DNA from: Clostridia bacterium
GTDB lineage: Bacteria; Bacillota; Clostridia; TANB77; CAG-508
Direction of reading: 5' to 3'
Length of the DNA: 64,000 nt
NCBI GenBank assembly: GCA_051891195.1
Contig: JBJFEZ010000008.1
Span: forward strand, 340-64,339
The notes under the pieces were generated by a model that worked only from the letters and a program-made list of their open reading frames with translations, was not told the DNA's origin and searched no databases. The position numbers and the translations under genes are program-made. Every line of letters starts with the position of its first letter. The first letter of the stretch is position 1. Positions 15,741-16,351 of the stretch are shown here, piece after piece.

Positions 15741-16193
15741 TTAAGCACTTTTAGATATTAATGTCTTACCAGAAATGAGATTTTCAAATTCTTCTTTTGT
15801 ATATCCTTGCCAACGAATAGTGACATTGGCACTAGCTAAAATTTCTATAAACCAATTATCATTATAATTTGGGCTATATAAAAATATATAATCTTTGTTG
15901 TTGTCTGTATAAACATAAAATATTTTTTTATATGAACTTAAACTCCAAGGCACTACAGTTGCAACTACTACTTTTCCGTTTTTATCTACATTGGCAAAAC
16001 CTGCTATTCCACTATCATAATAGTCAGTATTGCTAATAAACATCGTTAATTGTCCTGCTAAACTGCTATCTTTGCCATTATGTACTTGTGTGCCTATCAG
16101 ATAATATCTATTTCTCATTCCTTTAAATCTCATTCGTGAATTAGGATAGTATTTATTTCCCTCAATGTCCTGAAAATATCCACTATAGTTCAT
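15741..16193 (-). CDS. receptor-binding-tip-like paralog 1
   Basis: N-terminal MNYSGYFQDIEGNKYYP. Its ATG overlaps the stop of the leader ORF (ATGA). Its own SD lies only 1 nt from the ATG. Confidence 0.6.
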   Translation of the reverse strand: MNYSGYFQDIEGNKYYPNSRMRFKGMRNRYYLIGTQVHNGKDSSLAGQLTMFISNTDYYDSGIAGFANVDKNGKVVVATVVPWSLSSYKKIFYVYTDNNKDYIFLYSPNYNDNWFIEILASANVTIRWQGYTKEEFENLISGKTLISKSA

Positions 16194-16351
16194 GCTCCAT
16201 CACGGAGAGTGCTTAATACAACACCCTCCCTTCCTCTTTGGAGGCAAAGTTGATTAAATAACTTGCCTCCTTTCTGTTTCTGTAGAAAGTATGCTCTCTC
16301 TCTCTCTCTCTCTCTCTCTCTTACAGTATCAATAGTTTTAAGATTTTGCAT
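16190..16351 (-). CDS. 53-codon leader ORF containing the (AG)14 repeat
   Basis: Strong RBS aaggtggag, ATG at 16351. Reads MQNLKTIDTVRERERERERAYFLQKQKGGKLFNQLCLQRGREGVVLSTLRDGA*. The stop TGA (16192-16190) overlaps ATG 16193-16191. Confidence 0.45.
   Translation of the reverse strand: MQNLKTIDTVRERERERERAYFLQKQKGGKLFNQLCLQRGREGVVLSTLRDGA
16240..16270 (-). promoter_or_regulatory. 10-bp hairpin inside the leader ORF
   Basis: ggaggcaa(a)gt / acttgcctcc with a 10-nt loop. No U-run on the coding strand. One alternative frame has a TAA in the loop. Confidence 0.4.
16294..16321. repeat. (CT)14 / (AG)14 dinucleotide microsatellite
   Basis: Counted directly: a 28-nt perfect alternation. Confidence 0.95.

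Follow-up and report, generated by a model that had tools for sequence, protein, structure and literature searches.

A prophage of about 38.7 kb in the window (the whole 64-kb stretch of DNA that was analysed) carries a perfect (AG)14 tract inside a short leader open reading frame (ORF) that follows a tail fibre gene and ends on the start codon of the first of three tail-tip genes. The number of repeats varies among related phages, and a change of one two-nucleotide unit shifts the site at which the leader terminates to another of three fixed stops. We consider it probable that this hypermutable tract functions as a contingency locus, encoded by the phage and acting at the level of translation. 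A preliminary description of the DNA had read the tract as a candidate slipped-strand contingency locus, and the repeat-number polymorphism and three-stop architecture found in relatives support that reading.

The repeat tract, the leader ORF and the tail-tip genes

The 28-nt tract is 100% perfect and is the sole period-2 array in the TRF output for the window (Table 1). Its length is far beyond chance in this DNA, where dinucleotide runs number 155 with three units, 24 with four and one with five, followed by the single run of 14. Among 209 kb of fetched loci, the only other run of at least six units is a single (AT)6 in L008/L009.

Table 1. Features of the leader module and neighbouring tail genes (positions in the window)
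Feature	Coordinates	Strand	Basis
Tail fibre/tail protein gene, 499 aa, DUF859, directly upstream of the module	16380..17879	-	Pfam DUF859 E=1e-64; phrog_372 tail protein E=3e-101
Shine-Dalgarno (SD) region of the leader ORF, AAAGGAAGGTGGAG (SD-like)	16355..16368	-	Read directly
Leader ORF, 53 codons at n = 14, MQNLKTIDTV-(RE)4.5-AYFLQKQKGGKLFNQLCLQRGREGVVLSTLRDGA-stop	16190..16351	-	ATG at 16351
(AG)14 hypermutable dinucleotide tract; (CT)14 on the + strand	16294..16321	-	TRF, run-length distribution
Hairpin B, GGAGGCAAGUU / AACUUUGCCUCC, loop AUUUAAUC holding UAA 16256-16254	16240..16270	-	Single-sequence folds, compensatory changes
Hairpin C, GGAGGGUGUU / AGCACUCUCC, SD-like paired with anti-SD-like	16204..16229	-	Folds, alignment
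Conserved box, TAAGCACTCTCCGTGATGGAGCATGAACTAT	16185..16215	-	Multi-lineage alignments
First tail-tip gene, 150 aa	15741..16193	-	N-terminal MNYSGYFQDIEGNKYYP motif and predicted beta-sandwich domain
Second tail-tip gene, 130 aa	15337..15729	-	Shared N-terminal motif; tail-fibre C-terminal domain, phrog_2712 E=3e-25
Third tail-tip gene, 125 aa, no SD	14933..15310	-	Shared N-terminal motif, unrelated C-terminal part

The SD-like region, the leader ATG, the perfect tract with its RERERERER coding, hairpin B and the end of the fibre gene stop at 16380 all lie where the preliminary description had placed them. Reading the sequence likewise confirmed that the leader TGA (16192-16190) overlaps the ATG (16193-16191) of the 150-aa gene (gcATGAac; ATGA at 16193-16190) and that the GGAG of this gene sits 1 nt from its ATG.

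We simulated the outcome of repeat numbers 8-20 in the window sequence and obtained three termination sites. Repeat numbers of 11, 14 and 17 (frame 1) bring the leader to the stop that overlaps the downstream start. With 13 or 16 repeats (frame 0), the hairpin B loop supplies the stop, a UAA ~63 nt upstream of the start, and with 12 or 15 (frame 2) the leader ends at a UAA at 16215-16213, on the 3' edge of the hairpin C loop and 22 nt before the start. The preliminary description had given the hairpin-loop stop correctly and had set the other off-frame stop "around 16217", a small error corrected here.

The C-terminus of the fibre, ...NKVLSFVVTDSWS, is common to the upstream genes of most related modules and is degenerate in the most distant two (L025, L026). 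The region that holds the three tail-tip genes is bounded by the fibre gene and the endolysin gene and includes two unassigned 101-aa ORFs. These genes had been described as paralogs; they do have in common an N-terminal motif of ~17-22 residues (MNYxGYFxDxEGNxYYP), but the remainder of each protein is unrelated to the others. Searches of Pfam and PHROG returned no family for the 150-aa protein. Its AF2 model is of medium confidence (pLDDT 66, pTM 0.68), and the best Foldseek matches of the model are tail fibres and tailspikes (E=2e-5, TMq 0.5-0.56), which suggests, with medium confidence, that its beta-sandwich domain resembles distal tail-fibre/tailspike domains. On the strength of this fold match and of the PHROG match of the 130-aa protein, the tail-tip proteins may bind receptors.

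The SD signals of these genes are weak or missing. Other genes of the prophage have an AGGAGG 6-9 nt from the ATG, compared with the GGAG at 1 nt for the 150-aa gene, and the 130-aa gene starts 11 nt past the stop of the 150-aa gene without an SD. In L025, one of the two following tail-tip genes lies ~190 nt past the previous stop. The weak SD of the 150-aa gene is by itself no proof that this gene depends on the leader, since the 130- and 125-aa genes, which lack any SD, are presumably translated nonetheless.

Conservation of the module and its RNA structures

The module persists in phages whose flanking proteins are only ~50% identical and that carry another dinucleotide motif (AT or AC in place of AG) at the same site. 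Because the motif has been swapped at the same place in diverged phages, we argue that a slippery dinucleotide tract as such is under selection. The layout around the tract is also maintained. In 8/8 lineages, an AAAGGA(G/A)-type SD precedes the leader ATG, the first stop of frame 0 is the UAA in the hairpin B loop (at -57 to -66), frame 2 has one stop only, at -22, and frame 1 has one stop only, overlapping the start (AUGA, or GUGA in L026, where the start is GTG). All eight keep frames 1 and 2 free of stops over ~26-33 codons in sequence of 28% GC, and every indel 3' of the hairpin B loop in the eight-lineage alignment is a multiple of 3. The GGAG near the downstream start is absent in L024, which still keeps the overlap; retention of the overlap in 8/8 lineages despite this loss fits termination-reinitiation coupling.

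This pattern of conservation makes it unlikely that the tract is a neutral hypervariable microsatellite in a spacer, with a leader that is untranslated or inconsequential and tail-tip genes that are expressed constitutively. Neutrality would be compatible with the weak structure of the AUG region of the 150-aa gene in the minimum-energy fold, with the presumed expression of other MNY genes without SD or overlap, and with the natural occurrence of all three frames, none of which can therefore be lethal. It does not account for three repeat motifs at one site in diverged lineages that otherwise lack long dinucleotide tracts, for a strong SD and ATG before the tract in every lineage, or for the open frames 1 and 2, the frame-keeping stops, the 3-nt indel multiples and the conserved stop/start overlap.

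Relatives that lack the repeat or the module were also found. In L017, the place of the module is taken by a canonical SD that immediately precedes the homologous gene, and L023 encodes a fused relative of the 150-aa protein without the repeat. L017 and L010 appear to carry a candidate invertible fibre-tip segment that is flanked by 29-32-nt inverted repeats and contains the homologous gene. A megablast search with the region returned nothing from 50,697 phage records, the closest phages by protein are <45% identical, two exact-pattern scans of GTDB genomes gave 0 matches, and four patterns searched in IMG/VR recovered only two contigs with the module. Two further candidates, L014 and L016, were rejected as chance matches in unrelated high-GC DNA.

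Hairpin B shows covariation. On a trimmed alignment of the eight lineages, three pairs have changed on both sides, and 95% of cells are paired, compared with ~52% when the partners are slid. The G-U for G-C changes fit an RNA of minus-strand sense. A role as a sense-strand terminator was rejected for want of a U-run after the hairpin. It was likewise rejected as an antisense terminator, because the G-U pairs become C-A mismatches and no plus-strand gene needs a terminator there. The plus strand is T-rich after the hairpin. The stem of hairpin C is nearly invariant, and at the two pairs that do vary the changes are confined to a single side (A-U/G-U).

The 5' arm of hairpin B is a perfect SD-like AAAGGAGG. 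The contingency model does not account for the SD-like sequences that are conserved within hairpins B and C. Rfam 15 covariance models gave nothing at the gathering threshold in the region and noise alone at E up to 10. Further pairings differ among lineages: the leader RBS pairs with post-tract sequence in the AG and AT lineages only, and post-tract sequence pairs with GUGAUGGAG in the AT, AC and L025 lineages and not in the window. Because they are limited to some lineages, these long-range helices are kept out of the general model.

The minimum-energy fold computed for the window sequence does not strongly sequester the GGAG and AUG of the 150-aa gene, and ribosomes may therefore initiate there to some extent without the leader. 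A candidate arrangement in which an upstream CUCC sequesters the downstream GGAG was discarded, as this fold instead pairs CACUCUCC with upstream GGGAGGGUG to form hairpin C. The tract was also considered as a promoter spacer and rejected: the upstream TTGATA lies ~33 nt from any -10-like hexamer, and the promoter scan lists no promoter across the tract.

Within the conserved box lie the -22 UAA, the 3' arm of hairpin C, the GGAG and the leader stop together with the downstream start that it overlaps. Five lineages have the box in identical form, and only its first 18 nt are identical in all eight; sequences diverge on both of its flanks, in the hairpin C loop and in the coding sequence after ATGAACTAT. 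The coding sequence on both sides is less conserved than the box itself, a property expected of a DNA-level recombination linker, in which the box and repeats prone to non-B-DNA structure (H-DNA, Z-DNA, cruciform) would promote exchange of tail-tip cassettes and translation would be incidental. Varied upstream genes (encoding a 499-aa DUF859 protein, an 87-aa fibre-repeat protein and 222- and 488-aa proteins) are indeed joined to varied first tail-tip genes (82 to 254 aa), and three sequences (P0034, P0036, P0037) combine leader, tract and hairpin B with a different 3' tail. As the explanation of the module, such a linker seems quite improbable, because it leaves unexplained the SD and ATG, the stops in three frames, the 3-nt indel rule, the stop/start overlap and the strand-specific, G-U-compatible changes. 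It could nonetheless hold alongside a translational switch.

Variation in repeat number among relatives

An invariant repeat number in relatives had been named in advance as an observation that would speak against a contingency locus. The number was found to vary in the AG, AT and AC lineages. The clearest case is a metagenome contig (L003) that differs from the window by 0 mismatches in 5,166 aligned bases and by one 4-nt gap, which corresponds to (AG)12 in place of (AG)14. Two other contigs (L002, L004) are 100% identical to the window and have assembly breaks within the tract. The AG alleles comprise 12 (L001/L003), 14 (window, L004), 16 (L005, a 93%-identical relative) and 17 (P0014) units. 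The last of these came from a profile search and is the exact leader peptide predicted for n = 17, on an L005-type flank; an exact look-up of ten predicted leader peptides (n = 10-19) matched n = 16 alone.

The other motifs are similarly polymorphic. Alleles of 9, 11, 12, 14, 15 and at least 15 units were found in the AT lineage, and of 6, 9, ~12 and ~13 units, plus an interrupted tract, (AC)4(GC)3(AC)5, in the AC lineage. Some alleles recur in independent samples, with (AT)11 in L011 and L013 and (AT)12 on four contigs. Seven of the 19 fetched module-bearing contigs start or end at the tract (L002, L004, L006, L007, L009, L015, L021), which is only suggestive of repeat-length heterogeneity within populations.

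In a search of 5.8 billion protein clusters, 27 were found to hold full-length homologues of the leader, 45-66 aa long, whose (RE)n, (TH)n or (IY)n tracts vary. The coupled frame accounts for 27 leader clusters and the -22 frame for five, an excess that is partly detection bias, because short off-frame peptides are called less often. Among module contigs found without the leader peptide as reference, ~4-5 are coupled, two stop at -22 and two at -63. The coupled leader is the commonest state, and off states are frequent.

The 27 clusters also conserve a C-terminal segment, ...KLFNQxC...LSTLRD, as would be expected if the leader were a functional small protein with a dipeptide-repeat region of variable length. 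This explanation is very unlikely. A dinucleotide unit shifts the frame rather than the length of the peptide, and alleles exist in all three frames; the N-termini are unrelated between lineages, and the repeats encode the chemically unrelated RE, IY and TH. The frame across the conserved AAAGGAGGC, moreover, differs by lineage (GG-K in some, RRQK in others), so it is the nucleotides and not the peptide that are conserved there.

Assembly consensus can misreport repeat numbers, and the variation was in agreement across many independent assemblers and samples. That the differences are artefacts of PCR stutter or low-complexity assembly is hardly credible: the contig ends at the tract do mark a site that is hard to assemble, but real length heterogeneity within a sample would also break contigs there, and the different alleles were obtained from numerous samples through a variety of pipelines (Logan, MEGAHIT, scaffolded ENA assemblies, IMG/VR, MGnify), cover a span of 3-8 units within a lineage and in some cases are found repeatedly in independent samples.

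A proposed translational switch and its relation to known systems

These sequence features lead us to infer translation of the leader, expression of the downstream gene through reinitiation and a difference in output between the three states. The well-initiated leader ORF after the fibre gene would carry a slippage-prone tract, and gain or loss of one unit during DNA replication would move leader ribosomes into another frame, where the arrangement of post-tract sequence would have each frame terminate at one fixed place. In frame 1 (n = 14), ribosomes would terminate at the UGA on the start codon (AUGA) and reinitiate, giving high expression. In frame 2 (n = 12, 15), termination at the UAA 22 nt before the start would probably allow weak or intermediate reinitiation. 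In frame 0 (n = 13, 16), termination in the hairpin B loop would deliver no ribosomes. Given that the GGAG of the first gene is misplaced (and missing in one relative) and that the next two genes lack an SD, it is probably the leader frame that determines how much product is made from the first gene, and perhaps from the whole cassette. Differing repeat numbers among lysogens or bursts would then yield virions with differing amounts or sets of distal tail-tip proteins, a variation that may serve as bet-hedging for adsorption or host range. There are possibly three states rather than an ON/OFF pair.

A more far-reaching version is tentative, and we regard it as doubtful. It holds that the module is a three-state translational rheostat, with high, intermediate and low delivery of ribosomes to an SD-less chain of tail-tip genes, so that two-base slippage would re-programme the distal tail, and that temperate gut phages have assembled this device repeatedly from different dinucleotide motifs. 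If so, its purpose would match that of the candidate invertible fibre-tip segment which sister phages appear to use for the same gene family.

The usual view of phage host range is that tail genes fix it, or that it is varied by invertases, retroelements and other rare dedicated machines. Tail-fibre switching by DNA inversion is known from the G segment of Mu and the C segment of P1, and diversity-generating retroelements act in Bordetella phage BPP-1. The presumed purpose, stochastic variation of the distal tail fibre that hedges host range, is similar here; those systems use site-specific recombination or mutagenic retrohoming, whereas the proposed switch would use repeat slippage and translation. 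Another parallel is offered by oipA, sabA and hopZ of Helicobacter pylori, outer-membrane protein genes with CT/AG dinucleotide repeats in the 5' coding region, a classic case in which surface-recognition proteins undergo slipped-strand phase variation. Those repeats share the unit size of the present tract, and there are thus three frames of which one is productive, but the H. pylori repeat lies in the signal-peptide region of the regulated gene itself, on a bacterial chromosome, without coupling of separate cistrons.

Coupling through overlapping stop and start codons (AUGA/UGAUG) is known in operons and RNA phages, and a scanning model of reinitiation was reportedly put forward by Adhin and van Duin in 1990. 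As in those cases, the upstream ORF here ends on or beside the downstream start and the downstream RBS appears poor. The upstream frame is fixed in the known examples, whereas here a hypermutable tract would pick one of three termination sites. To our knowledge, the phage contingency loci known so far are homopolymer tracts within the affected genes, and a slippage switch in a leader ORF that ends on a tail-tip start codon looks like one not described before.

Among phages, the nearest comparison is with Campylobacter Fletchervirus phages, whose receptor-binding protein genes contain polyG tracts (Sorensen et al. 2021, Cell Rep 35:109214, as cited in PMC12633550). According to that secondary account, a hypermutable simple repeat encoded by the phage produces progeny subpopulations that differ in tail receptor-binding proteins, as we propose here. 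The Fletchervirus tract is described there as a homopolymer (G7-11) inside the receptor-binding protein gene of lytic myoviruses of a Gram-negative host, with slippage truncating the protein. The present tract is instead a dinucleotide of ~6-17 units in a separate upstream leader ORF, with putative translational coupling, in a temperate siphovirus-type prophage of a 28%-GC genome. Contingency loci in coliphages T2/T4 are homopolymers of at least 6 nt inside ORFs (agt, rIIA) and are tied to escape from host defence (Gomez, Barrick & Waters 2025, bioRxiv, PMC12633550). Both cases involve polymerase slippage at simple phage repeats as a presumed form of bet-hedging; the T2/T4 survey found homopolymer tracts to be under-represented in tail-fibre genes and describes neither a dinucleotide tract nor a leader ORF (PMC12633550).

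The proposed switch would extend phage contingency loci beyond homopolymers within genes to dinucleotide tracts that act by way of an upstream ORF, beyond lytic phages with Gram-negative hosts to prophages of low-GC gut-metagenome genomes, and possibly from two states to three. Its pattern (a strong SD and ATG, a dinucleotide tract of roughly at least six units and a stop overlapping a downstream start) can be searched for elsewhere. If the proposal is correct, the adsorption phenotypes in a lysate may be more varied than one genome sequence conveys, a point of relevance to phage therapy and microbiome work, and a temperate gut phage would randomise its tail-tip output reversibly and at high frequency by means of a very small device.

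The leader ORF, its tract and the prophage around them

As placed in the preliminary description, an SD-like AAAGGAAGGTGGAG precedes the leader ATG at 16351, a perfect (AG)14 tract occupies 16321-16294, and a hairpin at 16270-16240 carries a TAA (16256-16254) within its loop. The leader TGA (16192-16190) indeed overlaps the ATG (16193) of the following gene, which encodes a 150-aa protein and whose own GGAG lies, as described, 1 nt from the start. Changing the repeat number (n) in silico reproduced the proposed three outcomes: tracts of n = 11, 14 or 17 units lead to the overlapping stop and those of n = 13 or 16 to the loop stop, while n = 12 or 15 gives a separate stop at 16215-16213, slightly off the position around 16217 first suggested.

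No period-2 array other than (AG)14 occurs in the window (28% G+C), and the tract is an extreme outlier for run length: dinucleotide runs of three units occur 155 times, of four units 24 times and of five units once. The leader SD/AUG (16351-16368) is predicted to pair with GCAUACUUUCUAC just 3′ of the tract (16281-16293), a helix that puts the tract in its loop.

The leader region belongs to the late genes of a prophage whose end repeat is a doubled 11-mer. These genes lie on the minus strand in the order terminase, 610-aa virion protein, 476-aa tail-fibre-like protein, DUF859 tail protein, leader region, the genes for the 150-, 130- and 125-aa proteins, two 101-aa ORFs, and a CHAP/PG_binding_1 endolysin. 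The nearest deposited phages share <45% amino-acid identity with the prophage and have hosts among gut Firmicutes (Faecalimonas, Blautia, Evtepia) or streptococci; no nucleotide-level relative of the region was found in the phage collection. Immediately 3′ of the endolysin gene, a symmetrical hairpin (13357-13381) with T-runs flanking on both strands looks like a bidirectional intrinsic terminator between the endolysin and LysM protein genes. Between the lysis genes (plus the LysM protein) and the left attachment site lies a 2,243-aa ORF (5418-12149, minus strand) with no Pfam match, and a giant gene of at least 1,100 to ~2,100 aa occupies the equivalent place in three relatives (L004, L005, L006).

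Coordinates of prophage features in the window and of inverted repeats in two relatives
Feature	Position	Strand	Remark
Prophage	4219-4240 and 42892-42913 (end repeats)		~38.7 kb; bounded by the 22-bp direct repeat AATTACGTCAAAATTACGTCAA
Tyrosine integrase gene	41807-42880	+	adjoins prophage-end repeat
tRNA-Met gene	42962-43037	-	adjoins prophage-end repeat
tRNA-Gln gene	28708-28781	-	within prophage
DUF859 tail protein gene, 499 aa	16380-17879	-	directly before leader region
Inverted repeats, L017	3910-3938 with 5601-5629
Inverted repeats, L010	3971-4002 with 5109-5140

Conservation of the module and its stop codons

The same arrangement, comprising the fibre-gene end (...VLSFVVTDSW), an SD-ATG, a short ORF, a dinucleotide tract, a hairpin, a conserved box and the start of a gene whose product begins MNY, recurs in phages with only a ~50% identical homologue of the 150-aa protein, and the motif of the tract differs from lineage to lineage. 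Searching with a profile built from four full-length leaders gave 27 peptide clusters (45-66 aa) with unrelated N-termini and (TH)n, (HT)n, (RE)n or (IY)n tracts of varying length. A second profile, made from peptides of the frame whose stop lies 22 nt upstream of the following start, added five clusters. Loci were fetched for three of the most distant members, which carry an AC tract of ~13 units (L024), (AG)10 (L025) and (AG)8 (L026). Because motifs interchange at the site and runs of six or more units are otherwise nearly absent from the 209 kb of fetched loci (one (AT)6, in L008/L009), a slippery dinucleotide tract appears to be maintained at exactly this position, whatever its sequence. 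Unless selection acts on slippage itself, such maintenance is difficult to account for.

Less probably, the module acts as a recombination linker at the DNA level, a role that may coexist with a switch. It joins differing upstream and downstream genes, and the leader peptides end in ...LSTLRD-xx in 24 of the 27 clusters and in a different tail in the other three (P0034, P0036, P0037), which combine leader, tract and hairpin B with another 3′ tail. At the protein level, these three have the usual N-terminus, (TH)n and a KLFNQ segment, followed by ..IENINFIKLEGSIIKKDGSESSNLPKID in place of the LSTLRD box, which suggests recombination within the module. A separate protein-level observation concerns cluster P0017, where the overlapping TGA is lost and the leader reads 20 codons into the following gene.

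An eight-lineage alignment and single-sequence folds place two hairpins, B and C, 3′ of the tract, both with perfect SD-like sequences in their 5′ arms. Hairpin B has GGAGGC...GCCUCC arms (SD-like AAAGGAGG in the 5′ arm) and an invariant loop core, UAUUUAAU; in hairpin C, GGAG(A/G)GUG pairs with CACUCUCC. Standard pairs fill 95.4% of alignment cells, versus ~52% with the partners slid. Both-sided changes affect three pairs, all in hairpin B, and several pairs change from G-C or A-U to G-U, substitutions that would work only in RNA of this strand. Hairpin C shows almost no variation, and covariation therefore speaks neither for nor against it. Five of the eight lineages share an identical 31-nt box (TAAGCACTCTCCGTGATGGAGCATGAACTAT), of which the first 18 nt are common to all eight; its flanks diverge on both sides. 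The predicted long-range helices are lineage-specific: pairing of the leader RBS with the post-tract segment is predicted in the AG and AT lineages only, and a helix of the post-tract segment with GUGAUGGAG, before the downstream start that it might help to mask, in L008, L012, L020 and L025 (AT, AC and L025 lineages) and not in the window.

The layout of stop codons, which recurs in all eight lineages, is the most telling result. Counting in nucleotides before the downstream start, the first stop in the downstream gene's own frame is the UAA of the hairpin-B loop (-57 to -66), the only stop in the second frame is a UAA at -22 on the edge of the hairpin-C loop, and the only one in the third is the UGA that overlaps the start codon. 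Indels 3′ of the hairpin-B loop are all multiples of three; those 5′ of it are not. The stop/start overlap is kept as CTATGAAT in L024, where the start has no GGAG before it, and, with a GTG start, as ACGTGAAC in L026. The leader peptide itself is not what is conserved: lineages read the conserved AAAGGAGGC in different frames (GG-K versus RRQK), and their repeats code for RE, IY or TH.

Repeat-number variation and leader frame

Invariance of the repeat number among relatives had been named as a finding that would refute phase variation. We find that the number varies, with AG alleles of 12, 14, 16 and 17 units. A Logan contig from SRR30616841 (L001/L003) matches the window over 5,166 bases with 0 mismatches and one 4-nt gap, giving (AG)12. 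SRR30616833 contains two contigs 100% identical to the window, one ending inside the tract and the other starting there with 14 units. A 93% identical relative, L005 (ENA ERZ27233182), has (AG)16, and its leader is called as a 33-aa product that matches the prediction for the n = 16 frame; protein cluster P0014, from a 108.5-kb contig, is the exact n = 17 peptide predicted on an L005-type flank. AT alleles have 14 units in L008, at least 15 in L009, 11 in L011 and L013, and 12 in L018/L019; the AC lineage has (AC)9 in L020 and an interrupted (AC)4(GC)3(AC)5 in L012. Peptide clusters of the -22 frame include AT alleles of 9, 12 (four contigs) and 15 units. A short A run just 3′ of the (AT) tract also varies, A5 versus A4 (L008:3085-3095 against L011 and L018; TTGCAAAAACAC versus TTGCAAAACAC), a second, one-base indel that shifts the leader frame independently of repeat number.

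Reading the tract as a neutral microsatellite, the leader as a functional peptide, or the repeat differences as assembly artefacts is in each case contradicted by the conserved layout, the motif turnover, or the many independent samples and pipelines involved. In contigs detected independently of the leader peptide, the coupled frame occurs in the window, L011/L013, L012 and L020, the stop at -22 in L001 and L018/19, and the stop at -63 in L005 and L008. The interrupted tract of L012, which sits in the coupled frame, is presumably stabilised. Protein searches gave 27 coupled versus five -22 clusters, a comparison biased by ORF length. These observations support a bias to the coupled frame with frequent off states.

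At the sequence level, the element has the features of a putative contingency locus together with an overlapping-stop/start coupling arrangement. Slippage of the tract would reset the frame of a strongly initiated leader, and the frame would decide how far ribosomes travel: as far as the AUGA overlap, or only to a release site at -22 or ~63 nt upstream, in the hairpin-B loop. From what is established of bacterial termination-reinitiation, its efficiency here would be expected to fall in the order AUGA overlap, -22, ~-63.

Putative tail-tip genes and their possible programmed variation

The 150-, 130- and 125-aa proteins, first described as paralogs, do share an N-terminal MNYxGYFxDxEGNxYYP, which is also found in the first post-module genes of relatives (82-254 aa), but the remainder of each is unrelated. 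The 150-aa family has no match in Pfam or PHROG; its AlphaFold model (nine sequences; pLDDT 66, pTM 0.68) is a beta-sandwich that, in structure searches, best matched distal regions of tail-fibre and tailspike proteins (BFVD E = 2e-5, TMq 0.5-0.56; PDB 6c72 E = 3e-3). For the 130-aa protein, the match is to the C-terminal part of a tail-fibre family in PHROG. We infer that the three are interchangeable tail-tip proteins that dock via the common N-terminal peptide.

In most other prophage genes, an AGGAG-type SD and the ATG are 6-9 nt apart. No SD precedes the 130- and 125-aa genes, which begin 11 and 26 nt beyond the stop codon of the gene before (15730-15740, 15311-15336); chained reinitiation or SD-independent initiation could be at work. 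Corresponding genes in L025 and L026 likewise lack an SD. L017, a relative without the module, has a canonical SD before the homologous gene.

The phage contingency loci treated in a preprint (PMC12633550) are homopolymer tracts inside genes, as in the polyG of Fletchervirus receptor-binding proteins, T2 agt, T4 rIIA, and BPP-1 and PB1-like phages; it also describes simple repeats as under-represented in coliphage tail-fibre genes. The window locus differs in having a dinucleotide tract in an upstream ORF. Open-access full-text literature yielded no report, for phages or bacteria, of a tail gene coupled to an upstream ORF that contains such a tract, and no phage contingency loci other than intragenic homopolymers.

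In L017 and L010, a 146/157-aa homologue of the 150-aa protein is inverted and adjoins the tail genes at their 3′ end. Before it lies a short fragment of a fibre C-terminus, encoding ...SSSSIMTGFVITDSWL*, which a 29-32-nt inverted repeat links to the IIDNLSSSS region within the 855/784-aa fibre gene. No invertase gene was seen in the 4-kb flanks. The segment looks like a candidate invertible fibre tip of the Mu G / P1 C type.

With a switch at the tract, lysogens and the bursts they give would differ in their expression of the first tail-tip gene and perhaps of the SD-less genes that follow it. The inversion in L017/L010, if real, would be a second, unrelated mechanism of programmed variation for the 150-aa gene family.
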